Made by a program: the position numbers and the translations under genes
NCBI GenBank assembly: GCA_030679995.1
Contig: JAUXSK010000006.1
Span: forward strand, 10,328-74,327
Source of the DNA: Candidatus Moraniibacteriota bacterium
GTDB lineage: Bacteria > Patescibacteriota > Minisyncoccia > Moranbacterales > UBA2206
Length of the DNA stretch: 64,000 nt
Reading direction: 5' to 3'
Notes under the pieces: generated by a model
Database searches by the model: none
The model's input: only the letters and a program-made list of their open reading frames with translations
Told to the model about the DNA's origin: nothing
Part shown: piece by piece, positions 7,119 to 63,360 of the stretch
How the letters are laid out: each line of letters begins with the position of its first letter
Numbering within the stretch: position 1 is the first letter of the stretch

Positions 7119-8612
7119 TCAATACATCAGCACCGCTACCGGTTCCATTTTGGCTACGGCTTTCACGATTTGGTTATCTTCCATCCCGGCGATGACTTCC
7201 TCCACGTCTTTATAATAGGAGCTGTCTTGCATTATGACGCCTGAAGATTTGGCGTTGAAAAGTTTGACATGGCTCTTCTTCATTTTTTTGAAAAGCGTTT
7301 CCTTATCGAGTGACGCATCGGCCAAGGGATTTTTCCGGCGACCGGTCCCATGGCTGGCTGAAAAGAAGCTGGATTGATTGGCATCGGTACCGGCGCAGAT
7401 ATAGGCCGGGGTGCTCATCGAAGATGGGATGAAAACCGGTTCCCCAGTCTGGGAGAAGAGCGGATGGTTCATCCGGGCCGGGCCGTTGGCGCGCACGGTG
7501 CCATTGCGATGCACCCAGACGTCCTTGCCGAAATGGTTTTTTTCACGATGGACGAAAACGTGGGGCATATCATAGAGCATATCAAGCTCAGGATTTTTGT
7601 CCAGAACCTTTTCAATCGCCATATCCAGCTGATGGGTAAGGATGGAGCGGTTGGCGTAGCCTTGGTTGGCGGCGGCGTTGTGGGAGGTTATGAATAGTTT
7701 GCCTTCCAGGCTTTGGTCGTCGTAGGAAAAATATTCTTTGGCATCCTTGAAAGATTCAATTTTTTTCCACAAGGCTTTGAATTCTTTCTTGTAGTCGGTT
7801 TGGAAAAGAAATTTGCCGATTTCCAAAATTATTTTCTGGCTCAGGTGTTCCTTTCGCTTGGGGGTGTAGAGGTAGGAAGCGTATTGTCCCAACAGTCCGG
7901 AACCGGTATGCAAGAGGAAGATGTATTGTCCTTCTTTCAAACCGAATTTTTCGGCGATTTCCGGATCGCGGATTTCGGTGACTTTCATCAGGTCCAGGAA
8001 ATGGTTGCCGGCGGCGCCCAAGATGCCCAATCGGTATTGGCCGATATGCAAGAATAATTTGGGAATCGCGTTGAGGATCTCTTTTTCGGTCGGAATTTCT
8101 GAGAAAAAATTGCCGCCGGCAAAAGTATTTTCAATTTCATTTTTGGTGCGCATTTTGAAAAAATCGCGGACCGGCTCCACGCCTTTGCGGCAGATATCCA
8201 TTATCAAAGAATAGGGGACCTTGGTGCCGACATAGGCTTTGGTGGGGATGACACGCACCAATTCCTGGAAAATCCGGTCGATATTCCCGGAAGTCAGATC
8301 GGCATCGGTAAGATTGGTTTTCAAAAAACGCATCCCGCAATTGGGCGCAGTGTCGTTGATTTGCGGCAAAAGATGGTGCTCGGAGGCGATGACGGTGCCG
8401 GTGGGATTTTTGCGTCCCTTCTTGCTGTGCACGTCGCTCATCGCGGCTACGTGATGGAAAATATGCGGATCGGAGGCGACGCCTTCAATTTCAGCCAGCG
8501 TAGCGTCGCTGGGCATCAGGTCGTCGGAAACATGCAGGATGGCCGGTATTTCCATCGCGTCGGTTTTAAATTCCTTTTTATGGGCGGAGAGGTTTTTGAT
8601 TTGATAAGACAT
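7119..8612 (-). CDS. rtcB: RtcB-family RNA-splicing ligase (3'-phosphate/5'-OH RNA ligase)
   Basis: 'AAMSDVHSKKGRKNPTGTV' matches the RtcB metal-binding 'AMPDVHxGyG' motif. 'NDTAPNCGMRF' matches 'NDI.CGxR', and 'SASHGTGRRK' matches the RtcB 'HGAGR' motif. Start set at the internal ATG (8612..8610, 'MSYQIKNL') because the longer ORF-track start (8774) overlaps the upstream GT4 gene and adds a Lys-rich low-complexity N-terminus. Confidence 0.8.
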   Translation of the reverse strand: MSYQIKNLSAHKKEFKTDAMEIPAILHVSDDLMPSDATLAEIEGVASDPHIFHHVAAMSDVHSKKGRKNPTGTVIASEHHLLPQINDTAPNCGMRFLKTNLTDADLTSGNIDRIFQELVRVIPTKAYVGTKVPYSLIMDICRKGVEPVRDFFKMRTKNEIENTFAGGNFFSEIPTEKEILNAIPKLFLHIGQYRLGILGAAGNHFLDLMKVTEIRDPEIAEKFGLKEGQYIFLLHTGSGLLGQYASYLYTPKRKEHLSQKIILEIGKFLFQTDYKKEFKALWKKIESFKDAKEYFSYDDQSLEGKLFITSHNAAANQGYANRSILTHQLDMAIEKVLDKNPELDMLYDMPHVFVHREKNHFGKDVWVHRNGTVRANGPARMNHPLFSQTGEPVFIPSSMSTPAYICAGTDANQSSFFSASHGTGRRKNPLADASLDKETLFKKMKKSHVKLFNAKSSGVIMQDSSYYKDVEEVIAGMEDNQIVKAVAKMEPVAVLMY

Positions 8613-8640
8613 AAATGGACCGTTAAGACGGATTAAATAC

Positions 8641-9762
8641 TTATAATTTTTCGTAAATTTTTTCGTAGACGGCGGCGACTTTCTTGATATCGAAATTTTC
8701 TTCGCAGAATTTCCGCCCTTCTTCACCGAGGATTTTTCTTTTTTCCGGGTGGTCTTGCAGGTTGAAAATTTCATCGGCTAATTCCCGGATATTTCCGGCA
8801 TGGACGGTGATGGAGTTTTTTTCATTAGCGAATTCTTTGAGGATCGGCAAATCGGAAACGATCACTGGTTTTTTGCAGGCCATCGGTTCTACGGCGGCCA
8901 GCGGGATGTCGAATTTTCCGTGCATATTCCGAACGGGGAAAATGACGATGTCGGAGAGGTTGTAGAGCTTGGCCATATCGGAGAAGATGTCAATAAAAAC
9001 CACGCGGTCCAATACCTTGTTTTCAGTGAATTTTTTGACCACCCATTCCTTTTTAGCTATCGCTGCGGGATCATTTTTCAGGCGGAAAGCTAAAATTATC
9101 TTTATATTCCTTTCCCTGAATTTTTCGGCTTGTCCGATCACCATTTCCACCATATCATCCGTAGCTCCCAGTCTGACATATTCACCCGCGAAGGTTACGA
9201 TAAAGTCTTCCTTGGTCAGTCCTAAATCATCCAAAATCCCGAGATCTTTCTCTTGGGGAGAATAATATTCCAGGTCGATTCCGGGATAGACCCGCTTGAC
9301 ATTTTTGAATCCCAGGCTGTTAAGTTTGTTTTTAGCATAGTCCGAATAAGTTATGATGAGATCGGCAAAAAGCATTTCTGCGTAATCCTTGTCTTGGAAC
9401 AAATCTTCGCGCAAAGTGGCGATGGTCTGGATGGTGCGGGCTTTTTTGTCCTTCACGAAAGTTTTGAAACCGAAAGCATTGAGTTTGTTGGGGGTGAGCA
9501 TAAAATGCATAATATCGAAATCTTTTCTGATGCGCATCAGCTTCAATAGACGGGCGCGTTGCAGCCAAGAAAGGTGGTTGGAGGTGTAAATCGGCCTTTG
9601 GCGCACGCTGGATGGCAGATCAGGCACGAGACCATTGGTTAAAAGATTAATTTCCACGCCGGAAATATTACGCGCCAGATAGTAAGCGAAATTTTTGGAA
9701 GCTTCGTCCCAAGGCGGGGCGATGGGCCGCGTGACCAGTAATATTTTTTTACGGATAGTCAT
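8641..9762 (-). CDS. GT4-family (GT-B fold) glycosyltransferase
   Basis: 373 aa with GT-B two-Rossmann-like organisation and a C-terminal EX7E-like region ('EPMACKKPVIVSDLPILKEF'). Lies in a glycosyltransferase context. Confidence 0.7.
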   Translation of the reverse strand: MTIRKKILLVTRPIAPPWDEASKNFAYYLARNISGVEINLLTNGLVPDLPSSVRQRPIYTSNHLSWLQRARLLKLMRIRKDFDIMHFMLTPNKLNAFGFKTFVKDKKARTIQTIATLREDLFQDKDYAEMLFADLIITYSDYAKNKLNSLGFKNVKRVYPGIDLEYYSPQEKDLGILDDLGLTKEDFIVTFAGEYVRLGATDDMVEMVIGQAEKFRERNIKIILAFRLKNDPAAIAKKEWVVKKFTENKVLDRVVFIDIFSDMAKLYNLSDIVIFPVRNMHGKFDIPLAAVEPMACKKPVIVSDLPILKEFANEKNSITVHAGNIRELADEIFNLQDHPEKRKILGEEGRKFCEENFDIKKVAAVYEKIYEKL

Positions 9763-9763
9763 A

Positions 9764-10138
9764 TTATTCTTGCATATTTTTATAAATTTCCTGCGTGTCC
9801 GTGCCGGTGGAAACCCGGATGGTCATTTTTTTATCGGATACGGTTACTAGGGGGCTCAATTCTTTTTTTTCTCCGGTTTGTATCCCGACATCGCCTTGGG
9901 AAATTTTTTCCGTATTGTCGGCCAGGATCTCCCAATGGAAATCTGTCTGGGAACTGAAATTTTCAATGACGAAATCCAACCGGTCAGATTTAGGATCGGC
10001 GAAAGATACGGCATACCAATCGGTGTTGTAGTCCGGGCTGTTATAGCGCGAATCGATGGCAAATAAATAGACGGAACTCGCCAGGAACAGCGCCAGGAAG
10101 AAATAAATAAAATTGTTATTTGGGTTCATTTTCAACAT
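9764..10138 (-). CDS. hypothetical signal-anchored/secreted small protein
   Basis: N-terminal hydrophobic segment 'FIYFFLALFLASSVYLFAI' followed by a hydrophilic domain. Translationally packed against the neighbouring membrane protein gene. Confidence 0.4.
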   Translation of the reverse strand: MLKMNPNNNFIYFFLALFLASSVYLFAIDSRYNSPDYNTDWYAVSFADPKSDRLDFVIENFSSQTDFHWEILADNTEKISQGDVGIQTGEKKELSPLVTVSDKKMTIRVSTGTDTQEIYKNMQE

Positions 10139-10139
10139 A

Positions 10140-12050
10140 TTAGTTGTTGCGATAATAAATATTGATACCGGGACTGGAATAGGTCTGGTCGAAATTTTTC
10201 AGTTTTCTGAATTGGGCGCTGTCGTAGCGCGGATTGACCATGATGAAATCGGTGCCGGTTTCAGCAAAGCAAGCCCGGGCTTCCGCGTTGTCTGGGCTGG
10301 CGATCATCTGCAGGGTGCACATTTCCCGCGGTTTGGTTTCATCTTCATAGCGTTTGAAATATCCGCGTGAAAGCGGGTACTTGTAGCCGCGCATCAGGAA
10401 GATCTTCATCCAGGAATCGGCGGTGATGTAGTTGTGGTCTTTCAGGATCATATCGTTTGATGAAGTTTTTTGGGCGAGGTAGCTTGAAGCGTCGAAGGTC
10501 TGTGCGACCGGAGCGAGATCGGTTTTGTCTTTGAAAGCCGAAGCTGAATCGGAAATCCCATCTACCAGGACGAAAGTCAAAACCACGATAAATCCGGCGC
10601 GGATAAGATTGCCGGACGATGCGAGTCGTTCGCTTGTCTTGGATCTTTTATCCGTTCCGAAGAGGGCATAGAGCGAATAGGCGCTGAGAATGGCGATGGG
10701 ATAGGATAGGTAATTACCGATGCGATTGCTAGGGAGATTGATAAATAGCAGATGGGGCTGGGTCGACATCAGAAAAATCATCACCGCCCAGGCGAGGATG
10801 ATAGAGTGGCCGAAATTCCTTTTCTTGAATCCGGCAATAAGGATTATGATGCCTAGAAGGCCCAAAGCGATCCGGGCTTCGCCGATGGAAGAGCGCAGAT
10901 TTTCCATCGTCAGTCCGACGCGCGTTTCTTTGCTAGGCGCTCCGACGGCGGTGTTGACGGCGCTATTTTTGACATAGTTCGGGGTGAAAATTAAAAAGAA
11001 AAAAACAAGTCCGGCAAAAAAGGTCGCCAGGACCTGAGGGGAAATGACCAGGCGTGACAAGGCCGGAAGAAGCTTTTTCCAATCCTTGAAATTGGCAGTA
11101 AAAAATACGGCGGCAATCATAGCAAAAATAAAGAGGAGGATAAAAGCGGTGAGATGATGGGTATAGAACAGTCCGAAAGTCGTGAAAATCGCGAGTGCGA
11201 GAAAAGCGCGAGAGCTTTTCTCTGCCGCAAAACCGGTTTCAAAAAATTCCATCGAACGGTAATAAAAATAAAAAGCAAGCGGCATCAGCAAATTTCCCAT
11301 GATATTGCCGACGACTCCGCCGCTGACAAACTTGGCTTGGGGTGAGGCTACGGCATAGAGGACGCCCAAAAAAAGCAAGACTAGGATTGCGATATTTTTC
11401 CGTTTAAAGATGCGCAGGGCCAAGATGAAAACCGTCAGTATGCCCAAAAGGTTCACAAGCAGAAGTGTTATGACGGGAAAGGCGGAAAAAACGCTGGCGC
11501 CGCTCAAAAGGCCGATTGTGCCGAACGGGATTTGCTCGCCAATGATAAAATCCGGCATCTGATCATAGTCCGGCAAACGATGGTTGTCGATCATCCATTG
11601 CGTCCAATACATATGGTGGCCCATATCGGTGGCAGTCGGGAAGACCGTGTCAGAAAGATAGGCTGTCTTAATGAAAATGGTCAGGAAAACCAGGAGGAAA
11701 ATCAGGACCGTTTGATGTCGGGAAAAATCGAACAATTTTTCTTCCGCCATTCCTGATTCCAGGCCGGCTTTTTTGGATCTGATTTTGTGGATGATCAGGC
11801 AGGCTGAAACAAGAAGCGCGATGCTGGCGGAAAGCGACAATCGGGTGATCGGCAAACCCAGTCCGGCCAGGGAAAAATTCAAAAAATCAACGCTGACAAT
11901 GCCAAGGCCGAATGACAAGATAAACCGTTCAAGCGCATTAAGCGCTTTGCTTTTTCCGAATATCGCCAATAGCAAAGCATAGCCCGGCAAAAAAAACGCG
12001 AAGGCCAGCGCGGCATAGAATAAAATTTGACTGGTTATGGCTTCAAGCAT
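10140..12050 (-). CDS. large polytopic membrane protein, putative GT-C-type glycosyltransferase (YfhO/PMT-like) with C-terminal extracytoplasmic domain
   Basis: 636 aa with more than 12 TM helices, a conserved acidic/His loop 'TDMGHHMYWTQWMIDNHRLPDYD', and a ~170-aa soluble C-terminal domain. Lies in the glycan locus. Confidence 0.4.
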   Translation of the reverse strand: MLEAITSQILFYAALAFAFFLPGYALLLAIFGKSKALNALERFILSFGLGIVSVDFLNFSLAGLGLPITRLSLSASIALLVSACLIIHKIRSKKAGLESGMAEEKLFDFSRHQTVLIFLLVFLTIFIKTAYLSDTVFPTATDMGHHMYWTQWMIDNHRLPDYDQMPDFIIGEQIPFGTIGLLSGASVFSAFPVITLLLVNLLGILTVFILALRIFKRKNIAILVLLFLGVLYAVASPQAKFVSGGVVGNIMGNLLMPLAFYFYYRSMEFFETGFAAEKSSRAFLALAIFTTFGLFYTHHLTAFILLFIFAMIAAVFFTANFKDWKKLLPALSRLVISPQVLATFFAGLVFFFLIFTPNYVKNSAVNTAVGAPSKETRVGLTMENLRSSIGEARIALGLLGIIILIAGFKKRNFGHSIILAWAVMIFLMSTQPHLLFINLPSNRIGNYLSYPIAILSAYSLYALFGTDKRSKTSERLASSGNLIRAGFIVVLTFVLVDGISDSASAFKDKTDLAPVAQTFDASSYLAQKTSSNDMILKDHNYITADSWMKIFLMRGYKYPLSRGYFKRYEDETKPREMCTLQMIASPDNAEARACFAETGTDFIMVNPRYDSAQFRKLKNFDQTYSSPGINIYYRNN

Positions 12051-13427: not shown

Positions 13428-13895
13428 GTGGCGAAATCCGAATTCACTTGTCCCCTAATAAGTAAAAATATTTTTAATTCTATGATTATCACGATATGTG
13501 GAAGCTGTACCTTTGCTGAAGATATGGGCAAAGCGGCAGAACATTTGAAGAAAAAAGGCCATGAAGTTTATACGCCCGATCCATTGGTTACCGAAGAATG
13601 GTACCAAGAGAATCATGGTCGTGAGAATTTTCTTGATATGAAACCTGTCTGGACTAAAAATCACATGAAGAAAATAGAAGGTTCTGATGCCGTGCTGATT
13701 TTAAATAACGAGAAAAAAGGAATTAAAGGTTATTTTGGCTCCAACACTTTAATGGAATTGTCCGTGGCCTTTTTTCTTCAAAAGAAAATATTTTTACTAA
13801 ATCCGATAGATGAAGACCATCCGCATTACGAGGAGCTTATAGCAGTAGATTCAGTTGTTCTGCACGGAGATTTGGACAATTTTTCAAAGGAATAG
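13428..13895 (+). CDS. nucleoside 2-deoxyribosyltransferase-like (NDT/LOG-like Rossmannoid) protein
   Basis: 'MIITICGSCTF' and 'DAVLILNN...GSNTLMELSVAF' resemble the NDT family Gly-rich N-terminal strand and the 'DSGTAFEIG' catalytic-Glu motif. The true start may be the internal ATG at 13482. Located in the AT-rich islet. Confidence 0.4.
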   Translation: MAKSEFTCPLISKNIFNSMIITICGSCTFAEDMGKAAEHLKKKGHEVYTPDPLVTEEWYQENHGRENFLDMKPVWTKNHMKKIEGSDAVLILNNEKKGIKGYFGSNTLMELSVAFFLQKKIFLLNPIDEDHPHYEELIAVDSVVLHGDLDNFSKE

Positions 13896-14111
13896 AACAA
13901 GTGAATTCTGACATTGCACAACACCAAATATCTGGTTCAAAAATTTTTCACATTTATATAATCAGTAGCCAAAGCAGTATCGTTTTGTGTAAATAATTTG
14001 GGATGGAAACTGGAAGAATTAGCAACAAGTTCATCTCATCAATGGTTTGTTTTGTGAATCACAAAAGAGTTTATTAATCGGGAATATCCCCATTTTGTAG
14101 ATTTTTAAAAT

Positions 14112-15155
14112 ATGGAAAACTTTTCGAAAAAAATTAAAACACCGCAATCGCCATCGGAAATAACAACCGAATGGTTAGAGGGCATACTTAATAATACTTC
14201 AACCAACGAAATTGTCTCTATAGAATCAGATGATAGATTTAAGCCTGGCGGACACTTGGGAAAAATTGAAAAAGTTAAAATCACTTATGCTTCTCCTGAA
14301 TTTGAGCCGAAATCGGTAATTGTAAAATTTCAAAAATGTTCTGACCCAAAAAAAGAAGCGGAAATTTATCGACTCTTGGGGGAAGCGAAAATTTCATACA
14401 TCCCTCATTTATATGGGAAGTTTGGAGATGGGAACCTGGTCTTAGAAGATTTGTCCTCGACTCATTCAGTAATAAAAGATTTTGATATTAATCAAGTCCA
14501 AAAAGTAATCTCACTCCTTGCGGATGTTAATAGTAGATTCTGGGGCAATTCCGAGGTGCCGAAAGACAACCTGAGCCATTTCATTAATTCGATTAACATC
14601 AATTTTGAAAAAGGTTGGGAAAAATTTAAAAATCGATACGGAGAAAAACTCGGAAAGGAAATTGCCGATTTCGAATGGATATGGAAAAATCGTGAAATCG
14701 TTTCTGGTCATTACAATTCAAGCCCGACAACTTTATGCCATGGCGATGTAAACAGGTCTAATATTCTTTTCTCAAATGACAAAAGCAACAATCCAGTACT
14801 TATCGACTGGCAACTTTCCGGACAAAAAGTATTTCCTTTTGATATTTCTTATTTTCTGGTGAAAGCGCTAAGCGCAGAACAAAGACAAGAACATGAGAGT
14901 ACTTTGCTTAAAGAATATTATAAACTGCTGTCCGAAGAAATACGGTCAAATTATCCTTTCGATATTTTTATTTTAGATTATCGGGCATGCGCAACAAGGT
15001 CAATGCTTAGCGCAGTAACAAAATTTGGGCCGATATTCGAAAAGGATTTTAGTTATGACAAGGCCGATGAATTAGCAGAAAGAGTTATTGATGCCGTAAG
15101 AGACCTTAGACCTATAGAAGCCATTCAAGAATTACAAAATGTCAGGAGTTTTTAA
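14112..15155 (+). CDS. aminoglycoside-phosphotransferase/choline-kinase (APH/ChoK, Pkinase-like) family small-molecule kinase
   Basis: The Brenner catalytic motif is 'LCHGDVNRSNILF' (HGDxxxxN) and 'LIDWQ' matches the IDW/DFG-equivalent. Size 347 aa with a Lys-containing N-lobe. GC content is visibly lower than in flanking genes. Confidence 0.7.
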   Translation: MENFSKKIKTPQSPSEITTEWLEGILNNTSTNEIVSIESDDRFKPGGHLGKIEKVKITYASPEFEPKSVIVKFQKCSDPKKEAEIYRLLGEAKISYIPHLYGKFGDGNLVLEDLSSTHSVIKDFDINQVQKVISLLADVNSRFWGNSEVPKDNLSHFINSININFEKGWEKFKNRYGEKLGKEIADFEWIWKNREIVSGHYNSSPTTLCHGDVNRSNILFSNDKSNNPVLIDWQLSGQKVFPFDISYFLVKALSAEQRQEHESTLLKEYYKLLSEEIRSNYPFDIFILDYRACATRSMLSAVTKFGPIFEKDFSYDKADELAERVIDAVRDLRPIEAIQELQNVRSF

Positions 15156-15258
15156 TTTTGAGCATTCACCCCTGACCTCTCCCAAAATCCAAAACAAAAA
15201 AACTTTCAAACAAAAAAGACCTTCGGAAGGGGAAGGTCTTTGTAAAATAAACTTACGT

Positions 15259-15606
15259 TTAAAGATTAAGGATTTCCAGTGCCAATTCTGCGACTTTGTT
15301 TTTTTTCGCATCATGAGTTGCGCCTGCATTGAGCAACTCTTCCCTGTATTCGTACAGACCAGAACAAGCGATGATCGGTTTGGTGAAGCCGGCTTGGACA
15401 ATCTTCCTTACCAGTGACATTGAATTTGGACGGTCTCCGGGTACACACGCGTCCATAATGATCAAATCAATGTCGGTATTTCTGCGGAAAAGATCTTCCC
15501 CTTCCTCAAGAGTCGTCGCTCGCAAAACCTCAACTTTTCCATTAAGCTCCTCGTTGATTCTACGGAAATACCCATCATGATCTTCAATCACCAACACTTT
15601 TGACAT
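15259..15606 (-). CDS. single-domain response-regulator receiver (CheY-like REC) protein
   Basis: 'KVLVIEDHDGYF...DLIIMDACVPG...KPIIACSG' has acidic pocket residues, a phospho-acceptor Asp in 'IIMDA', and a conserved Lys near the C-terminus. SD 'AAGGAG' lies 8 nt upstream of ATG. Confidence 0.6.
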   Translation of the reverse strand: MSKVLVIEDHDGYFRRINEELNGKVEVLRATTLEEGEDLFRRNTDIDLIIMDACVPGDRPNSMSLVRKIVQAGFTKPIIACSGLYEYREELLNAGATHDAKKNKVAELALEILNL

Positions 15607-15803
15607 TATGCTGTCTCCTTTCTTTTTATCTAAAAGAACCCTTGAAATTCACCCAAATTCAACCCCTCAATCCAGTGAAACTTAGCAGATTTTTATTGTT
15701 TGGTCAAATATTTATGCTACGATTGAGATGTTCTACAAAAGCGGGCTTAAATTTCAGATACTCGGATATGTCAGCCGGAATATCTTAAGAAAATTTTTTT
15801 ACA

Positions 15804-16286
15804 TTGATGATGAAAAATATCAAAAATGCTTTTAAATGGATAATCGGCCTTCTGATGCAAAATAATATTCCTTTCCAAATTTCCGGAGGATTTGCTGCAA
15901 AACTATATGGCGCCAATCGTCCTCTGTTTGATATAGATATTGACATAAAAGGAAAGGATTTTGACAAGCTCTTGCCATTTGTAGAAGACTATATTTTATC
16001 TGGACCTAAGAGATACTTGGATGATTCATTTGATCTTCAACTTTTGACATTGGAATATCAAGGCCAACGCATTGACTTGAGTGTAAGTGAAAACTCTAAG
16101 ATATACAACGCCAAAACAAAGCAATGGCAAGAGTGTGAAACAAATTTTAATTCATTTAAAGAGTTTGAAGTTTATGGATTAAAAGTTCCTGTAATCACAT
16201 GGCAAGAACTTGTCGAATACAAGAAAATTATCAGAAGGCCGACTGATTTAGAAGACATTGCCGCTATAACCAAAAAATTTTCTTAA
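15804..16286 (+). CDS. ANT(2'')/AadB-like minimal nucleotidyltransferase family protein
   Basis: 'ISGGFAAKLYGANRPLFDIDIDI' is the Pol-beta-type NTase GS/GG..DxD motif. Size (160 aa) and layout resemble the aminoglycoside 2''-adenylyltransferase family ('GGWAIDARLG...DIDL'). Confidence 0.5.
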   Translation: MMMKNIKNAFKWIIGLLMQNNIPFQISGGFAAKLYGANRPLFDIDIDIKGKDFDKLLPFVEDYILSGPKRYLDDSFDLQLLTLEYQGQRIDLSVSENSKIYNAKTKQWQECETNFNSFKEFEVYGLKVPVITWQELVEYKKIIRRPTDLEDIAAITKKFS

Positions 16287-26291: not shown

Positions 26292-27236
26292 ATGGAATTA
26301 TTGAGGACTTTCCGGAACTTGGGTAAAGGCGATGCTGGCTTGGCAGGAGGCAAAGGCGCTTCATTGGGCGAAATGACACAATCCGGCATTCCGGTGCCAC
26401 CCGGTTTTGTGGTTTTGGCCGGGACTTTCGAGAAATTTCTGGAAGAAACTGATTTGGGCGTCGAGGTTGATGCGATTCTGCATACAGTGGATCACAATGC
26501 GATGCATACGGTCGAAGAAGCTTCGGAAAAAATCCAGACTTTGATTAAGAACGCCCAGATGCCAGGAGATATCGCCAAGGAGATAGAAAGGGAATTTAAA
26601 AAACTCGGCGCTGAATTTGTGGCAGTGCGATCGAGTGCGACAGCGGAAGACGGAGCGGAAAACGCCTGGGCAGGACAGTTGGATTCTTATCTCAATACGA
26701 CCGAGAAAGACTTACTAGAAAAAGTCCAACATTGTTGGGCTTCACTTTTTACTCCCAGAGCCATTTTTTATCGGTTTGAAAAAAATCTTCACAAGCAAAA
26801 AATTTCGGTGGCGGTGGTAGTGCAAAAAATGGTGGAGAGCGAATTTTCCGGCATCGCTTTTTCGGTGCATCCGGTGACAGAGGACTACAATCAGCTCATC
26901 ATCGAAGCCGGTTTCGGCTTGGGCGAAGCGATCGTATCCGGACAAATCACCCCAGACAGTTATGTGGTGGAAAAAAATCCGAGGAATATTTTGGATATCA
27001 ACGTTTCTACGCAGGAACGCGGAATTTATCGGGCGAAAAACGGCGGCAACGAGTGGCGGGATATTCCCGAGCCGCAAGCGTCCGCGCAAGTCCTGACGGA
27101 AAAACAAATTTTGGAATTGTCGGAAATAATCCTTGGCATCGAAAAACATTACGGTTTTCCTTGCGATATCGAATGGGCGTTCGAGGGCGGCAAATTCTAC
27201 ATCGTCCAAAGCCGGCCGATTACGACTTTAAATTAA
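26292..27236 (+). CDS. stand-alone PEP-synthase/PPDK N-terminal ATP-grasp nucleotide-binding domain protein (PPDK_N)
   Basis: 'GGKGASLGEM' and 'VAVRSSATAEDGAENAWAGQ' are signature PpsA/PPDK_N motifs. The terminal 'DIEWAFEGGKFYIVQSRPITT' is the final ATP-grasp motif. The protein stops there (314 aa) with no phosphohistidine or TIM-barrel domain. Confidence 0.8.
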   Translation: MELLRTFRNLGKGDAGLAGGKGASLGEMTQSGIPVPPGFVVLAGTFEKFLEETDLGVEVDAILHTVDHNAMHTVEEASEKIQTLIKNAQMPGDIAKEIEREFKKLGAEFVAVRSSATAEDGAENAWAGQLDSYLNTTEKDLLEKVQHCWASLFTPRAIFYRFEKNLHKQKISVAVVVQKMVESEFSGIAFSVHPVTEDYNQLIIEAGFGLGEAIVSGQITPDSYVVEKNPRNILDINVSTQERGIYRAKNGGNEWRDIPEPQASAQVLTEKQILELSEIILGIEKHYGFPCDIEWAFEGGKFYIVQSRPITTLN

Positions 27237-27345: not shown

Positions 27346-28197
27346 TTGTATATGAATATGACTGGAAAAAAACTTCCCTGGAACAAGCAATTGGCAAAAG
27401 ATTGGAAAAATTATCCCGCGCCCGTCAGACCGGGACTGGAAATGGCTATATACGAAAAAATCATCAAAAGGGTTCTTGCAGGCAATAAGAATCCGAGGAT
27501 TTTAATTTTGGGGTCGACGCCGGAATTCCGCGATTTGCTTTTGAAGCATAAAATAACGCCGATTTGTTGCGATGTGAATCCGGAGGTATATAAGGCGTTG
27601 AAGATTTTAATGGAAAGGAATGGAAAAGAATTATTCGTTGAATCTGACTGGCTTGATCTGGACGATGCGCATAGATTCGACTTGATAATGGGCCATAACG
27701 TTATCAATATGATCCCGATAAATAAACAAGGCCTTTTTATAAAAAATATTGCCGACAATTTGAAGCCGGATGGGATATTCGCGACTACCGTAGTAATACG
27801 TCCGGTACGCAAAGACGTAAATCCGGCTGATGGGTTTGAAAGATACAGGAAGCTGCGAATCAAGACGGGCAAAAAAATGCTTTTTATGATATCTTACCCG
27901 GACCTGGTGTTTTCAATAGGGCAGAAAAAAGGATATTATACGCCGTCCGGAATATTATCGAAGTTGCGCGATATGCGTAGAAAACGGATTATTGATGATC
28001 CGGAATTTAAGACGATGCTTGAATTTATTAAGCCGAGCAGCCTGAAAATCAGATTGCCGCTAAGGGACAAGTTGGAAAATACTTTTAATAAATATTATCT
28101 GATTGAAGATGTCAAAAGCATAACCGATAAATATTTCGATCCCAGCTATTGGCCCATTTATATTTTAAGAAAAAATGGATATTCCCAAAAATTATAA
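27346..28197 (+). CDS. class-I SAM-dependent methyltransferase-like protein, LCM/TcmP-like (carboxyl/O-methyltransferase) family; paralog of the 50171-55509 array
   Basis: 'ILILGSTPEFRDLL' aligns with the LCM/TcmP motif I 'vvxLGAGlDTRayRL'. It is followed by 'CDVNPE' (acidic post-I), 'SDWLDL' and 'FDLIMG'. The N-terminal 'W..x..RPG' motif is shared with the six paralogs. Confidence 0.45.
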   Translation: MYMNMTGKKLPWNKQLAKDWKNYPAPVRPGLEMAIYEKIIKRVLAGNKNPRILILGSTPEFRDLLLKHKITPICCDVNPEVYKALKILMERNGKELFVESDWLDLDDAHRFDLIMGHNVINMIPINKQGLFIKNIADNLKPDGIFATTVVIRPVRKDVNPADGFERYRKLRIKTGKKMLFMISYPDLVFSIGQKKGYYTPSGILSKLRDMRRKRIIDDPEFKTMLEFIKPSSLKIRLPLRDKLENTFNKYYLIEDVKSITDKYFDPSYWPIYILRKNGYSQKL

Positions 28198-29729: not shown

Positions 29730-30677
29730 ATGGGTTTCGAAGAAGGCGACCCTAAAGAAATAACACTTGAAAAAGAACCCAAATATGTCTTTATGATCAC
29801 AAGGCATGCGGAAAGGCTGGCCTCGGGTGAGCTTTCTCCCGAGGGCGTTGAAAACGCAAGTGGGAAAGGCGGGCAGATCGGAGAAATGGCCGAGGTACTG
29901 AAGGCCTATGCCAGTGATGAAAAAAGTGACCGGGCTTTTGTCACGGGCGATCTCATTTCTGAAAAAAGCGGAATCAAATCGGAATTAACCGGGAAACAGT
30001 ATGTTACGCGCAAAGTCGAGGATATACAATATGGGATATTAAATCCGGATTTGAAAAAACAATTAGGTAAAGCTTCTGATTTGATCAATGAAGAAACTCT
30101 GCGGGAATTAGGTGAATCAACTGAAAGAGACGAAAATGGAAAATTGAAAGTCGATCTTACGAAATTGCCTGATCAAGAAAAAATCGCACCGATCCGGGCC
30201 AAAAACCAAGTAGTCGGATTCAGATATATCCTAAGGGAAGAAAACGATGAGGCAGTAACTCGAATGGCTATGGGGCTGGCACAACAATTGAATCACGAAT
30301 TTGAAATAGCCGGAAGATATAATGATAGATATAGGAGCGGAGAGGATGCTAACTTTAAAAAAGATGCTGTCTTAAATACCGTTACCCACGGTATGTTTAT
30401 GGAATCTTTGTTGAAAAAAACTGGCATTATGATAGGAAAGGATGAGCAGGAAATGCCAATTTCCGATTTTGAAAGCGAGGGCTTCGGCGGTTTCATCGAT
30501 ACTAACGAATCGATCTATTTGGATATCAAGAATCCAAACGATCTGCCGGATAAAATACCGGTCAGGTTCGAGGGCGGCAATAGGCCGGCGGAAGGCAAGG
30601 TTTTTATCGACAAAAAGAAATTGCTGGCATTGGTGGACAAATATAAAGAATGGAAGGCGTCAAGAGAATCAGAATAA
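29730..30677 (+). CDS. histidine-phosphatase-superfamily (PGM-branch)-like protein
   Basis: 'FMITRHAERL' matches the RHG catalytic His motif and the later 'NTVTHGMFMESLL' matches the second His motif. Weak; family assignment by motif only. Confidence 0.4.
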   Translation: MGFEEGDPKEITLEKEPKYVFMITRHAERLASGELSPEGVENASGKGGQIGEMAEVLKAYASDEKSDRAFVTGDLISEKSGIKSELTGKQYVTRKVEDIQYGILNPDLKKQLGKASDLINEETLRELGESTERDENGKLKVDLTKLPDQEKIAPIRAKNQVVGFRYILREENDEAVTRMAMGLAQQLNHEFEIAGRYNDRYRSGEDANFKKDAVLNTVTHGMFMESLLKKTGIMIGKDEQEMPISDFESEGFGGFIDTNESIYLDIKNPNDLPDKIPVRFEGGNRPAEGKVFIDKKKLLALVDKYKEWKASRESE

Positions 30678-32201: not shown

Positions 32202-32792
32202 ATGATAAAAGCGATTTTTTTTGATTTGGGAAATGTCTTGGTAAAAGAGGGATTCGCCTCCGGAATCAGGGAATATGAAAAGGATAATTCCTTGGCGCCA
32301 GGCAGTCTTTACGCGGCAATGCGGGATTTTCCATACTGGAAGGATTTTACGCTGGGTAAAATTTCCGAAAAAGAATATTTCGATGAGGTGAATAGGGGTT
32401 TCAACGGCGGACTGGACGTAAATCGGTTAAGGGAGGTCGTGCTTGGGGGCTTCGTTCAAAATACCGAGCTTGTGGATCATATCAGGGCCTTGAAGAAAAA
32501 ATATAAAATCGGCGTCATTTCCAATAACCCCAAGGAGTGGTTTGGATATTTTTCCGATAACTTCGGATGGAACGGCATTTTCGATATCATCGCGGTGTCG
32601 GGTGATCTGCATATCCGCAAGCCGGCAAAAGAAATTTTTGACTATGCCCTCGCCCAAGCCGGGATATCGGGAGAGGAGGCTATCTATGTCGATGATCGTC
32701 CAGATCGAGTGGAGGGTGCCGTATTGGCGAGGATGAAAGTGGTAATTTTTAAGGATATAAAAAATTTAATTAGAGAAATAGATGAAAAATAA
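32202..32792 (+). CDS. HAD-superfamily hydrolase (subfamily IA, YihX-like sugar-phosphatase type)
   Basis: Motif I 'IFFDLGNVLV' (DxGNV variant as in YihX), motif II/III Ser/Lys, and motif IV 'IYVDDRPDRVEGA'. Confidence 0.65.
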   Translation: MIKAIFFDLGNVLVKEGFASGIREYEKDNSLAPGSLYAAMRDFPYWKDFTLGKISEKEYFDEVNRGFNGGLDVNRLREVVLGGFVQNTELVDHIRALKKKYKIGVISNNPKEWFGYFSDNFGWNGIFDIIAVSGDLHIRKPAKEIFDYALAQAGISGEEAIYVDDRPDRVEGAVLARMKVVIFKDIKNLIREIDEK

Positions 32793-33420
32793 TAAAACAT
32801 TGTATCTTTGGGATCTGGCCGGAACGATTTTCAGGGAGGAGTGGGATGCGGAGAAGACGGGATTTGCCGGATATTATGATTGGCTGGAAACCAGGCTTGG
32901 GAAAAAAATGAGCGAAATCACCCCAAGGGAGGAAGAGGAGATGTATAAGATCCCGTATGGCGAGGGGTGGTATTTCAAGTTGGATTTGATGCCGGGCGCC
33001 AAAGAATCTTTGGGATGGGCGGAGTACAGCGAAGTTTTCACCCAAGGCAATCCGGAGCAGATTGATTGGCGGGCGGAATATCTCACGCCAAGAATCGGAT
33101 TCGATGTGCGGAAATTTTTCAAGAAAATAAATTCGACTTTCGATTATGCGGAAACGAACGTGAAAACCAAAGAGATGCTTTTGGATTATTTGCGGAAAAA
33201 ATATGACGAAGGATTCAAAAGCGTAATTTATACTGATGACAAACTCAAAAATTGCGAAAATTTCGCAGAGGCTGCCAAGGAAATAAAAAAGGAATTCAGT
33301 GATTTTGACTATCGCTTGTACCACGTCTTAAATGATGGAAAGGGCCTGCGGGAAAAGGATAATTATTCAGAAATTGGAAGTTTGAATGACTTGATCGAAG
33401 CGGAGAGTAGGATCGTTTAG
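32782..33420 (+). CDS. hypothetical protein, possible divergent HAD-like hydrolase
   Basis: 'LYLWDLAGTIF' (DxxxT motif-I-like) and 'VIYTDDKL' (motif-IV-like DD). Low confidence. Confidence 0.3.
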   Translation: MKNNKTLYLWDLAGTIFREEWDAEKTGFAGYYDWLETRLGKKMSEITPREEEEMYKIPYGEGWYFKLDLMPGAKESLGWAEYSEVFTQGNPEQIDWRAEYLTPRIGFDVRKFFKKINSTFDYAETNVKTKEMLLDYLRKKYDEGFKSVIYTDDKLKNCENFAEAAKEIKKEFSDFDYRLYHVLNDGKGLREKDNYSEIGSLNDLIEAESRIV

Positions 33421-59707: not shown

Positions 59708-60937
59708 TTATAAAATTTTAATTATTCCATTATCCGCGTCTACTTCAACATATTCACCCGTCTTTAATATTTTCGTAGCATCTTTGACTCCAATAATACA
59801 AGGTATTTTAAATTCTCTGGAAACAATAGCGGCATGAGAGGTGATACCACCTGTTTCGGTTATGATTGCACTGGCCTTCCGCATAGCAGGTAAATATTCT
59901 ACTCCCGTATAAGGAACGATCAATATATCTCCACTTGCTATCATTTCTATGGCGCCAGCACTGTCTTGTGCAACTATTGCTCGTCCACTTGCCTTGCCTA
60001 ATGATGCGGTTTGTCCTCTTAATTCTTTAGTTTTTATTGCTGTTCCAATTTCTTTAAAATTACCTTTTTCTAAAAAATGTTTTGCTTCCGAACCTGAAAA
60101 AATATTTAATTTGTTATCTGGATAAAATAGTACTGTTAGAACATGCCTCTCGTCGATGATTTTTTTAATTTCTATTTTTTTATTAAGAGCTTCTTTGATT
60201 TCATTGATTTGCAAATATTCAATATCGTCAACTTCGCACCGCAGTCGATTTGCCAGTGACGCAAATAGATTTAGCAATTTTCGTTTTCGAGAGTCTAGCA
60301 GTTCCGAAACATCATCTTTTATGAAAGTTCCAACGCGCAGGATAGTGCTGAAATTTTTGTCCCGATCTGATAATTTTATTTTATCCTGCAAATCTGGCGA
60401 AGATATTTTTGCAAAACGACTTTCATGGATTGGCTGGGTGTAAAAAATAAAATTAGCGTTTATCTCACCAATATCATTGGAATACTTATGCAAATTAGTC
60501 AGAAAATCAGATCCTATTAAAGAACTAAATAGGTGCAGCAAGTTGCTCATAGCATCTAAAGTTGCTGCTTGTTTACGAACTACTTCCAAATCATCTATTA
60601 TCTCGGCATCGCTTATTTTTTTATATTCCTTCCGTTCCAGCGCAGATAGAGTGTCTCTTAGCTTAATTGAAGAACTTTCATATTGGGCCAGAATTTGATT
60701 TATCCATTTATCATTAGCAATCTTTTTTAATAAATTTTGCTTGAGTATTTCTAAATCATCTATTTTGCCGAATTTTTGTTGCCAGCCATTTTTTATGATG
60801 GACAAAATCCTATATCTGGAACCGCAAAGCTCTTCAAAATTTTGAAAAAACAACTCGTCAGCATAATTAAGCGCCGTCAGCGGCGGAAGCTGGTTGCTAA
60901 AAAGTAATTCGTATTTGCTATTTTGAAATGAAATCAT
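59708..60937 (-). CDS. PEP-utilizing phosphohistidine-domain protein, paralog 5 (unlinked copy)
   Basis: C-terminus 'GQTASLGKASGRAIVAQ...[49 protein letters not shown]'. Divergent N-terminal ~300 aa. Confidence 0.7.
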   Translation of the reverse strand: MISFQNSKYELLFSNQLPPLTALNYADELFFQNFEELCGSRYRILSIIKNGWQQKFGKIDDLEILKQNLLKKIANDKWINQILAQYESSSIKLRDTLSALERKEYKKISDAEIIDDLEVVRKQAATLDAMSNLLHLFSSLIGSDFLTNLHKYSNDIGEINANFIFYTQPIHESRFAKISSPDLQDKIKLSDRDKNFSTILRVGTFIKDDVSELLDSRKRKLLNLFASLANRLRCEVDDIEYLQINEIKEALNKKIEIKKIIDERHVLTVLFYPDNKLNIFSGSEAKHFLEKGNFKEIGTAIKTKELRGQTASLGKASGRAIVAQDSAGAIEMIASGDILIVPYTGVEYLPAMRKASAIITETGGITSHAAIVSREFKIPCIIGVKDATKILKTGEYVEVDADNGIIKIL

Positions 60938-61344: not shown

Positions 61345-63360
61345 ATGGAAAAGCCTGTCAAAATCATCATTGATATCGTGCCGATCGCCCGGATTCCGCT
61401 GTCGCGGAACCAGTCTTTTTCGTATTTGTCGGACGCTGAAATCCCGACCGGTTCCTTGGTTTCCGTGCCGCTTTTCCGCCGGGTGACGGAAGGTATCGTG
61501 ACCGGCTATCGTCCGGATTTTGAACGGTTAGGCAACATTGAATTGAAAAAAGTCTCCGAAATCTTGGAAGAAAATTTCTTGGATGGAAAACAGATCGAGC
61601 TAGCGCAATTTATAAGCGACTATTACTTCTCTCCTCTAGGCATAGTCCTTAAATCTTTCATTCCGAAAAGAGTCAAGGCGCGGATCAAAAGGTCCGGCCT
61701 TAAAACCATTATGGCAATCTCCAAGGCCGGATCTTTGAGCGGTGCTCAGAAAATCATCCTTACTCCGGAACAAAAAAACGCTATCAAAAAAATAACTTCC
61801 GCTAATTTAAAATTCTTACTATATGGTCCGGCCGGCTCCGGAAAAACCGAAGTCTATATCGAATCGATCAAAAAACTTCCTAAAAACGGACAGGCCTTGA
61901 TCCTGTTACCGGAGCTCACGCTCACGCCGCAAGCTATCGAAAGATATGGCGAGCATTTCGGGGCTGACAACATCGCCGTGTTGACCAGTAAGATTTCCAA
62001 AGGCGAATATTATCGCCAATGGCAAAAAATCAAATCCGGCGAAACCAAGATAATCATCGGCACGCGTATGGCCGTTTTCGCGCCTTTCAAAAAACTCGGC
62101 TTGATCGTGGTCGATGAAGAACAAGATATGTCATACAAACAATGGGATATGAATCCGCGTTATGATGCGCGTACGGTAGCGGGAAAACTGGCAGAACTAC
62201 ACAAGAGTAAAATAATTTTCGGTTCCGCCACGCCCAGCGTCGAAACCTACCAGCAAACTCTCGGGCAAGAATTTGCGCTGGTCGAAATCCCCCACCTGAA
62301 AATTCCCGGCGCGCCGGAAAAGGATTATGACGGACCAGAGATCCTGATCGTGGATTTGAAAAAAGAGAAATGGGAAAAGAACCATTCCCCTATTTCGCGG
62401 AAACTACGCTCCGAAATCGCCTATGCTTTAAAAAATAAATTGCAGGTCATTTTATTCATCAACCGCCAAGGTATGAGCAGTTTTTCCATTTGCGCCGGTT
62501 GTAAGACGGTTTTGAAATGCCCTAGATGCGAAAAAGCCTTGATCTATGACAACAGCGGCGCCTACAAATGCACCAGTTGCACATACCGGACATCCATCAC
62601 CCCGGAATGCTCCAAATGCCGCGGCATCGCCTTCCAAAACATCGGTTTGGGTACGCAAAAAATCGAACGAGAAATTTCTGGGATGTTCGCCAGCGCACGA
62701 ATAGCCCGTATGGATAACCAAACGATGAAGGTTCCCAGCGCCCAAGAAAAAATTTACTACGATTTCGCGGAAGGCAAGATCGACATCCTAATCGGCACCC
62801 AGATGCTGACCAAAGGCTGGGACTTGCCGAATGTGGCTTTGATTGGTATAATTGACGCGGATAATATGTTGGCAATTCCCGATTTTTCCGTGAATTCCCG
62901 GGCTTTCCAGAACATCGTCCAGGTGGCCGGACGATCCAATCGGCCGCATGCCAGATTCCGCGGAATGGTCATCATCCAAACATTCAATCCCCTCCAGGAA
63001 CTTTTCCGTTTCGCGGCTGAGCGCGATTTCAAGCGATTTTTTGAAAAGGAAATCAAAGAAAGGGGTGATTTATCTCTGCCGCCGTTCGGCAAACTGATCA
63101 AATTGGTTTTCCAAGATTACGACAAAAAGAAGGTTTTCCGAGAGGCTGATCGGGTATACGGAATCTTAGCGGAAATCGATGACATGGCCGTTTCCATTTC
63201 CGAACCGCAAGATTCTTTCGTTGCCAATGTGCGCGGCCGCTACAGAAAACAGATTATCATCAAATTAAAAAATAAGACCGTCACCGAAAGAATCAGAGCT
63301 ATATTATCAAATTTACCTGCTGGCTGGATCATTGATGTCGATCCGATCAGCATAATATAA
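61345..63360 (+). CDS. priA: primosomal protein N' (replication restart helicase PriA)
   Basis: Walker A 'LLYGPAGSGKTEVY', 'VVDEEQD' DEAH-type box, and Cys-rich zinc-binding insert 'CAGCKTVLKCPRCEKAL...CTSCTY...CSKCRG'. Confidence 0.9.
   Translation: MEKPVKIIIDIVPIARIPLSRNQSFSYLSDAEIPTGSLVSVPLFRRVTEGIVTGYRPDFERLGNIELKKVSEILEENFLDGKQIELAQFISDYYFSPLGIVLKSFIPKRVKARIKRSGLKTIMAISKAGSLSGAQKIILTPEQKNAIKKITSANLKFLLYGPAGSGKTEVYIESIKKLPKNGQALILLPELTLTPQAIERYGEHFGADNIAVLTSKISKGEYYRQWQKIKSGETKIIIGTRMAVFAPFKKLGLIVVDEEQDMSYKQWDMNPRYDARTVAGKLAELHKSKIIFGSATPSVETYQQTLGQEFALVEIPHLKIPGAPEKDYDGPEILIVDLKKEKWEKNHSPISRKLRSEIAYALKNKLQVILFINRQGMSSFSICAGCKTVLKCPRCEKALIYDNSGAYKCTSCTYRTSITPECSKCRGIAFQNIGLGTQKIEREISGMFASARIARMDNQTMKVPSAQEKIYYDFAEGKIDILIGTQMLTKGWDLPNVALIGIIDADNMLAIPDFSVNSRAFQNIVQVAGRSNRPHARFRGMVIIQTFNPLQELFRFAAERDFKRFFEKEIKERGDLSLPPFGKLIKLVFQDYDKKKVFREADRVYGILAEIDDMAVSISEPQDSFVANVRGRYRKQIIIKLKNKTVTERIRAILSNLPAGWIIDVDPISII

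Follow-up and report, generated by a model that had tools for sequence, protein, structure and literature searches.

An unlinked swivel-domain protein of a Candidatus Moraniibacteriota bacterium as a probable acceptor subunit of a split RPH-like dikinase

We analysed a 64,000-nucleotide stretch of the genome of a Candidatus Moraniibacteriota bacterium (assembly GCA_030679995.1, contig JAUXSK010000006.1, positions 10,328 to 74,327; hereafter, the window). Searches with tblastn found five copies of the swivel domain (phosphoenolpyruvate (PEP)-utilizers mobile domain) and one copy of the ATP-grasp domain PPDK_N in the window (Table 1). Four of the swivel-bearing genes, P1 to P4, form an array with the gene of the ATP-grasp protein, and the fifth, P5, which is the subject of this study, lies on the opposite strand, 32.5 kilobases (kb) from the end of the ATP-grasp gene and 23.3 kb from the end of the last array paralog. 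The strand and the distance agreed with those given in an earlier reading of this DNA (the original prediction), which had put P5 approximately 23 kb from the main cluster.

The only Pfam domain detected in P5 was PF00391, at residues 335–404 (E-value 1.8e-25; score 88.8 bits, Pfam gathering threshold 23.1), while neither PPDK_N nor a PEP-binding TIM-barrel domain was found in the protein by Pfam. The predicted catalytic residue is His368 (codon 59834–59836), located in the motif TETGGITSHAA (core GGITSHAA), 41 residues from the C-terminus. The C-terminal swivel-His domain described in the original prediction was thus recovered together with the peptide quoted for it. The AlphaFold2 model of P5 had a pLDDT of 93.5 and a pTM of 0.90, and an identical protein is annotated as 'PEP-utilizing enzyme [Candidatus Moranbacteria bacterium]'. 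The pairwise identity among the five swivel domains of the window was 43–58%. The ATP-grasp protein contained PPDK_N without any other domain; its matches in the PDB were the N-terminus of PEP synthase (8a8e, E-value 9e-74) and RPH-Lm's ATP-grasp domain (E-value 7e-67), and its orthologs comprised more than 120 stand-alone Patescibacteria clusters of approximately 315 residues (72–93% identical).

Table 1. Genes and domains of the window considered in this study (positions in the window; aa, amino acids; ORF, open reading frame)
Feature	Coordinates	Strand	Evidence
Stand-alone ATP-grasp (PPDK_N-only) protein, 314 aa	26292-27236	+	PF01326 E 1.4e-98, profile positions 3-312 of 328
Methyltransferase-like accessory gene in array	27346..28197	+	Weak Pfam methyltransferase matches
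P1, predicted acceptor component, 506 aa	28175..29695	+	PF00391 E 8e-26
Unannotated 315-aa gene in array	29730-30677		
P2, predicted acceptor component, 499 aa	30696..32195	+	PF00391 E 1.8e-24
Two HAD-type (phosphatase-like) accessory genes	32202-32792, 32782-33420	+	PF00702 E 1.9e-15 for first
P3, predicted acceptor component, 473 aa	33438..34859	+	PF00391 E 7e-26
P4, predicted acceptor component, 513 aa	34861..36402	+	PF00391 E 2.4e-23
Nudix protein, downstream of P5	58911-59369	-	
DUF7670 membrane protein, downstream of P5	59341-59706	-	PF24709 E 2e-28
P5, predicted acceptor component of split RPH-like dikinase, 409 aa	59708-60937	-	ATG-to-stop ORF
P5 swivel (PEP-utilizers mobile) domain, aa ~301-409	59711..60037	-	Pfam, motif, family profile
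P5 N-domain, aa 1-300, presumed substrate-binding	60038..60937	-	hhalign vs swivel-less P1-P4 families
88-aa membrane protein, upstream of P5	60958-61224	-	
priA, divergent, upstream of 88-aa gene	61345-63360		

P5 has the architecture of an acceptor component, namely, an N-terminal domain (N-domain) that is not an ATP-grasp domain, a C-terminal swivel, and a histidine no more than approximately 50 residues from the end. The same organisation is known from HpeHI of Rhodococcus, the phenylphosphate synthase PpsAB of Thauera, and CreHI of Corynebacterium, in each of which an ATP-grasp protein acts with a separate 'binding domain plus swivel' protein (PMC12167813), a split like the one predicted for P5 and the ATP-grasp protein of the window. 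In these two-component dikinases, as in P5, the histidine lies approximately 40–50 residues from the C-terminus within GGxT[SC]HAA (PMC12167813), and a separate PPDK_N-only protein is present in the genome of P5, as in theirs. HpeH does not associate stably with HpeI, and a histidine mutant of HpeH is inactive (PMC12167813); the components are considered to meet in a transient complex with a proposed His-pyrophosphoryl/phosphoryl mechanism (PMC12167813), to which P5 is likened here by homology. Based on its sequence and on these analogies, P5 is probably a functional acceptor component of an ATP-dependent small-molecule dikinase of the split, RPH-like type, with the ATP-grasp protein encoded from position 26292 as its shared donor in trans, and would be the counterpart of PpsA, CreH, and HpeH. 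Two differences are evident. The characterised systems come from free-living bacteria, where aromatic-catabolism operons encode them as 1:1 gene pairs, whereas here one ATP-grasp gene stands against five acceptors (up to 10–11 elsewhere) and the hosts are symbionts of the candidate phyla radiation (CPR) and the DPANN archaea. In addition, the genes of the known pairs are adjacent, whereas P5 and the ATP-grasp gene are far apart and on different strands.

The best PDB matches of the full-length P5 model were structures of the rifampin phosphotransferase RPH-Lm (E-values 8e-13 to 9e-12, 430–540 aligned columns), which ranked above PEP synthase, PPDK, and enzyme I, all of which share only the swivel with P5. 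RPH (RPH-Lm, PDB 5FBS/5FBT/5FBU/5HV1) has the same domain order as P5, with the binding domain followed by the swivel, but it is one chain of approximately 865 residues including an ATP-grasp domain, which P5 lacks, and its binding domain is longer (approximately 430 residues, compared with approximately 300 in P5). The P5 family profile aligned residues 235–409 with RPH-Lm 699–866, corresponding to the end of the RIF-binding domain (P5 235–300 on RPH-Lm 699–766) plus the swivel, and the NCBIfam RPH-like models aligned from P5 residue 218 onward. P5 nevertheless scored below the cut-offs of the two RPH models NF041857 and NF000283 (69.5 vs 999 bits and 47.1 vs 1700 bits, respectively). The prodiginine-condensing enzymes PigC, RedH, and HapC have an RPH-like three-domain layout, and their C-terminal ~110–175 residues aligned with P5 (NCBIfam, E-values 5e-20 and 2e-23); however, they are single-chain secondary-metabolism enzymes of approximately 880 residues, and P5 reached 71 and 82 bits against cut-offs of 1300 and 1350, respectively. 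Among the PpsA-like NCBIfam models (PRK08296 group), the best was NF006153 (77.4 bits, cut-off 578), which matched the swivel only (residues 302–409). The same held for PEP synthase (TIGR01418; 90.6 bits, cut-off 739.75). The swivel of PEP synthase and PPDK is homologous to that of P5 (family profile against PDB 8a8e, E-value 4e-35), whereas P5 has no TIM-barrel (PEP-utilizers_C) and its acceptor domain is unrelated to theirs. The homologs of the stand-alone ATP-grasp protein are labelled 'pyruvate, water dikinase' by JGI, although they contain neither swivel nor PEP-binding domains; this label is misleading, and PEP synthase may thus be counted by mistake in metabolic reconstructions of CPR genomes.

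The N-domain of P5 had been described in the original prediction as unrelated in sequence to those of the other four proteins, a view that profile–profile comparison overturned. The alignments were built from a pool of 406 single-module proteins with the swivel removed, each sequence being assigned to one family. With these disjoint sets, hhalign aligned the P5 N-domain with all four paralog families at probabilities of 99.0–99.6%, the strongest match being to P1 (99.6%, E-value 4e-24, P5 8–293 on P1 18–390), followed by P2 and P3 (both 2e-22) and P4 (8e-18). The corresponding E-values among P1 to P4, obtained from alignments with overlapping sets, were 4e-59 to 9e-78, with 3e-47 for P2–P3 and 6e-52 for P2–P4. 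We therefore regard the N-domains of P5 and P1 to P4 as homologous. Their kinship is invisible by eye because the pairwise identity between P5 and the paralogs is only approximately 16–22%; BLAST with the swivel-less pieces gave weak, colinear matches only, and full-length BLAST, whose alignments reached well upstream of the swivel, gave 32% identity over 306 residues for P5–P1, 36% over 226 residues for P5–P3, and 27% over 508 residues for P1–P3. Compared with the cluster paralogs, P5 lacks approximately 85 residues after residue 179, where the model is coil, so that the alignments identify its N-domain as a shortened version of the P1–P4 domain. It begins with a beta-hairpin region, after which come long helices, and its invariant residues cluster at positions 9–61.

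Approximately 50 full-length orthologs of P5 were found, of approximately 410 residues and 44–59% identity. An alignment of 41 of them had a mean column identity of 60% and 32 invariant positions, including His368. The family was also sharply delimited: a profile of the N-domain searched against all ORFs of the collected loci gave 300–466 bits for the orthologs and at most 50 bits for all others, and against 1.84 billion representative proteins it retrieved 16 family representatives at E-values of 1e-30 or lower and 214 weaker relatives. Judged by this conservation, P5 has been maintained as part of a discrete family, an old subfamily present in many CPR genomes. As such a subfamily with a shortened binding domain, it would be expected to have its own substrate, conserved across genomes.

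The swivels of the P5 family from nine genomes formed one clade with its own TETGGITSHAA signature, and the P5 swivel was more similar to the swivels of its orthologs (62% identity) than to those of its paralogs in the same genome (43–54%); therefore, swivel and N-domain have evolved together. Shuffling of modules between swivels and N-domains, which the original prediction had suggested looking for by phylogeny of the swivels versus the N-terminal domains, was not seen and is rejected in view of this single clade, its signature, and these identities. Concerted evolution of swivels within a genome was at most weak, since most swivels grouped by ortholog class and not by genome; the paralog swivels of one contig (L007, below) averaged 61% identity against a background of 50%. 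At another locus (L092:8953-13638; GCA_964572175.1, CAZNEH010000010.1), a unit consisting of a 169-residue gene, a 120-residue gene, and a P5 ortholog occurs twice in tandem and is followed by a further swivel paralog of 427 residues. The two copies of the small genes are 100% identical and those of P5 are 99.5% identical, one of the latter being truncated to 379 residues; the repeat reflects a duplication of very recent date or else an artefact of the assembly.

The composition of P5 was distinct from that of its surroundings. Its GC content was 0.346 and its GC content at third codon positions (GC3) was 0.278, the lowest of the 57 ORFs in the window (mean 0.514, standard deviation 0.077, z = -3.0), compared with 0.53 and 0.63 in its immediate neighbours and 0.42–0.51 in the cluster paralogs. 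In most other genomes, by contrast, the composition of the P5 ortholog matches that of the host. Because of the extreme GC3 and the occurrence of this discrete family in many CPR genomes and on one archaeal-looking contig, P5 probably entered the genome by horizontal transfer and not by local duplication. The term 'fifth paralog' used in the original prediction thus holds in that P5 is the fifth swivel copy of the window, whereas its origin as a local duplicate is doubtful. With flanking genes of normal composition, P5 has the appearance of one gene inserted by itself, with no partner transferred alongside. The archaeal-looking contig (L008; Logan ERR14373514, 40 kb) carries a P5 ortholog with 50% identity at 10001-11230 together with the archaeal marker domains Ribosomal_L15e, Cdc6_lid, and UPF0113. 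Modules of the wider family are frequent both in CPR bacteria and in DPANN archaea, a distribution suggestive of exchange between the two domains of life. The only other genes of the window that deviate to this extent are located in a second low-GC island at 13428-16286 (ORFs 13428-13895, 14112-15155, and 15804-16286; GC3 0.31–0.36, mean 0.51), which, from its composition, may be another horizontally acquired segment.

Comparison across genomes revealed a recurrent pattern of one ATP-grasp gene with many swivel modules. A P5 ortholog with 52% identity (P0036) is located within an array on the JGI contig L007; this array has at least 11 PF00391 genes and, at its end, one PPDK_N-only gene, 3 kb away from the ortholog. 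On two further contigs of 618 and 428 kb, the stand-alone ATP-grasp gene is found in arrays of 9–10 swivel genes that also contain phosphatase genes of the His_Phos_1 and LMWPc types. We then took a census of 79 loci (approximately 20 kb each) from GTDB species representatives of CPR bacteria and DPANN archaea; these loci came from a GTDB scan with the P5-family alignment that was dominated by the swivel, and they represent loci of the paralog families, not true P5 orthologs. They contained 274 swivel modules and 31 ATP-grasp genes, with up to 11 swivels per locus. Two or more swivels were present in 27 of the 31 loci bearing an ATP-grasp gene, and none of the 79 loci contained more than one such gene. 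Natural fusions also exist, including PPDK_N with four modules in a bacterial protein of 1994 residues (L015:5675-11659) and PPDK_N with eight modules in a single ORF of 3761 residues in a Candidatus Woesearchaeota metagenome-assembled genome (JAFGGS010000004.1; L038:3317-14602); fusions of PPDK_N to one to three modules were found among distant matches. Further long ATP-grasp ORFs were observed in L057 (~1996 residues), L079 (~1233 residues), and L050 (~1157 residues). The service of P5 in trans by the ATP-grasp protein, as put forward in the original prediction, is consistent with the single PPDK_N copy of the window, the lack of any PPDK_N fusion among the P5 orthologs, the L007 array, the census, the natural fusions, and the transient complexes of the known split dikinases, and is inferred from these rather than demonstrated.

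The array of the window is compact. The methyltransferase-like gene overlaps the start of P1 by 23 nucleotides and P3 and P4 are separated by one nucleotide, so tight translational coupling inside the array is likely. Homologs of the methyltransferase-like gene occur again in the arrays of L013 and L029, and both HAD-type genes recur in those of L026 and L063 (47–54% identity); the unannotated 315-residue gene had no Pfam match, and no homolog of it was detected in other arrays. Phosphatase-type genes are regular companions between the kinase modules, being of the HAD type in the window and His_Phos_1 and LMWPc in other genomes (L007:2191-3006; L010:17049-18564; L011:6106-6978 and 8491-9819), which suggests a pairing of kinases and phosphatases in the arrays. 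Around P5, the minus-strand order is the 88-residue membrane protein, P5, the DUF7670 membrane protein, and Nudix, in agreement with the position between a Nudix/membrane-protein pair and priA given in the original prediction. The start codon of the DUF7670 gene is one nucleotide past the stop codon of P5; because of this spacing, the two are probably co-transcribed. None of DUF7670, Nudix, and the 88-residue protein accompanied P5 orthologs in other genomes, and the neighbourhood thus offers no clue to the substrate.

Several observations weigh against P5 as an acceptor served by the shared ATP-grasp protein. The N-domain alone had no significant Foldseek match in the PDB, RPH (5hv2) being at rank 8 with an E-value of 1.4 and a TM-score of 0.37. 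None of the ATP-grasp fusions found holds a true P5-family module (at most 50 bits with the N-domain profile). Seven of the ten other P5-ortholog contexts had no ATP-grasp gene within 10 kb, and a stand-alone one was within this distance in only one of the ten. The window covers 64 kb of a 92-kb contig, and a second ATP-grasp gene could be encoded elsewhere.

One alternative is that P5 is a dikinase acceptor half whose donor is another ATP-grasp protein encoded outside the window. With 64 kb of the genome in view, and with P5 apparently acquired horizontally, the protein could have come with, or could need, another partner. At L005:15854-18835 (GCA_964502785.1), a protein of 993 residues combining CTP_transf_like, PPDK_N, and PEP-utilizers domains is encoded 4.6 kb from a P5 ortholog. 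This fused architecture is divergent and was missed by tblastn with the ATP-grasp protein of the window, and its neighbourhood is of the cell-wall glycopolymer type (Glyphos_transf, NTP_transferase). However, no locus examined had more than one ATP-grasp gene, nothing PPDK_N-like was found beside P5 or elsewhere in the window apart from the single copy in the array, the flanks of normal composition argue against a co-transferred partner, and the P5 ortholog in the L007 array shares the only ATP-grasp gene of that array. We consider a separate donor unlikely.

About equally unlikely, in our estimation, is a P5 that works without any ATP-grasp partner, with His368 shuttling a phosphoryl group between two small molecules or taking it from a donor other than ATP. 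HpeH alone transfers the phosphoryl group of 4-phosphoacetophenone to acetovanillone (PMC12167813), and since the majority of P5 orthologs stand alone, lacking a PPDK_N gene closer than 10 kb, the family could function in this manner. However, net phosphorylation in all characterised relatives of the same architecture goes through an ATP-grasp domain or subunit, the P5 swivel shows the same degree of conservation as the swivels of the paralogs in the arrays, one ortholog has its place inside an array that includes an ATP-grasp gene, and no PEP-binding TIM-barrel domain was seen in P5.

A phospho-carrier or regulatory role, in which P5 would act on a protein or sense a metabolite and would not be a small-molecule kinase, appears more improbable still. 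In its favour, PTS enzyme I also has a swivel domain, as do the C-terminal regulatory domains of pyruvate kinase, and, as noted above, the N-domain has no significant structural match of its own; against this, the homologous N-domains belong to paralogs whose arrays also encode methyltransferases and phosphatases (HAD, His_Phos_1), which is a small-molecule context, and over its full length P5 is structurally closest to the antibiotic kinase RPH. That P5 is a decaying or non-functional duplicate, a possibility raised in the original prediction and compatible with its isolation, its aberrant composition, and its length (409 residues, compared with 473–513 in the cluster paralogs), is effectively refuted, as the short length is a trait of the whole family, there are no frameshifts, the catalytic histidine is kept across the ~50 full-length orthologs, the model is confident, and the profile gap marks a discrete, maintained family.

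With P5 as the acceptor half served by the shared ATP-grasp protein, the following mechanism is predicted by homology. The ATP-grasp protein would bind ATP, and the P5 swivel would dock transiently on it. His368 would then attack the beta-phosphate, the gamma-phosphate being released as Pi and AMP leaving, after which the swivel would swing back to the P5 N-domain and transfer its phosphoryl group to the small molecule bound by that domain. In this way, a single ATP-grasp protein would be the shared hub for five acceptors, four of which are encoded beside it. A transferred P5 would be workable because hub and swivel are conserved across CPR lineages, making acceptor modules exchangeable. More tentatively, and with somewhat less than even confidence, we propose a 'hub-and-spoke' organisation for CPR bacteria and DPANN archaea, in which one strongly conserved ATP-grasp charging subunit serves interchangeable acceptor modules, each with a different small molecule. 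Its forms may include dispersed genes, arrays, and polyproteins of up to eight modules; its role may be, for example, the trapping or detoxification of host-derived compounds, and P5 may be a recently imported module that makes use of the resident hub.

The recognition of split RPH-like dikinases is recent and has been confined to 1:1 gene pairs whose substrates are phenolic compounds. Here, one ATP-grasp gene stands with many acceptors, some of them unlinked and apparently exchanged horizontally, in a pattern that recurs across CPR bacteria and DPANN archaea and includes fusions to four or eight modules. We found no literature on such one-to-many arrays or polyproteins in Patescibacteria or DPANN, which is no proof that they are undescribed. 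Being conserved and sharply delimited, the P5 family offers a good starting point in the search for a substrate. If our interpretation is true, the labels 'pyruvate, water dikinase' and 'PEP-utilizing enzyme' in metabolic reconstructions would be wrong, and the modules would represent a natural, plug-and-play form of kinase specificity usable for biocatalysis. Symbionts with minimal genomes would then devote a notable share of their genes to the ATP-driven phosphorylation of a panel of small molecules, and the hub-and-spoke arrangement, if true, would constitute an undescribed organisation of the PEP-utilising dikinase superfamily and a major, mis-annotated capacity of these ultra-small symbionts.

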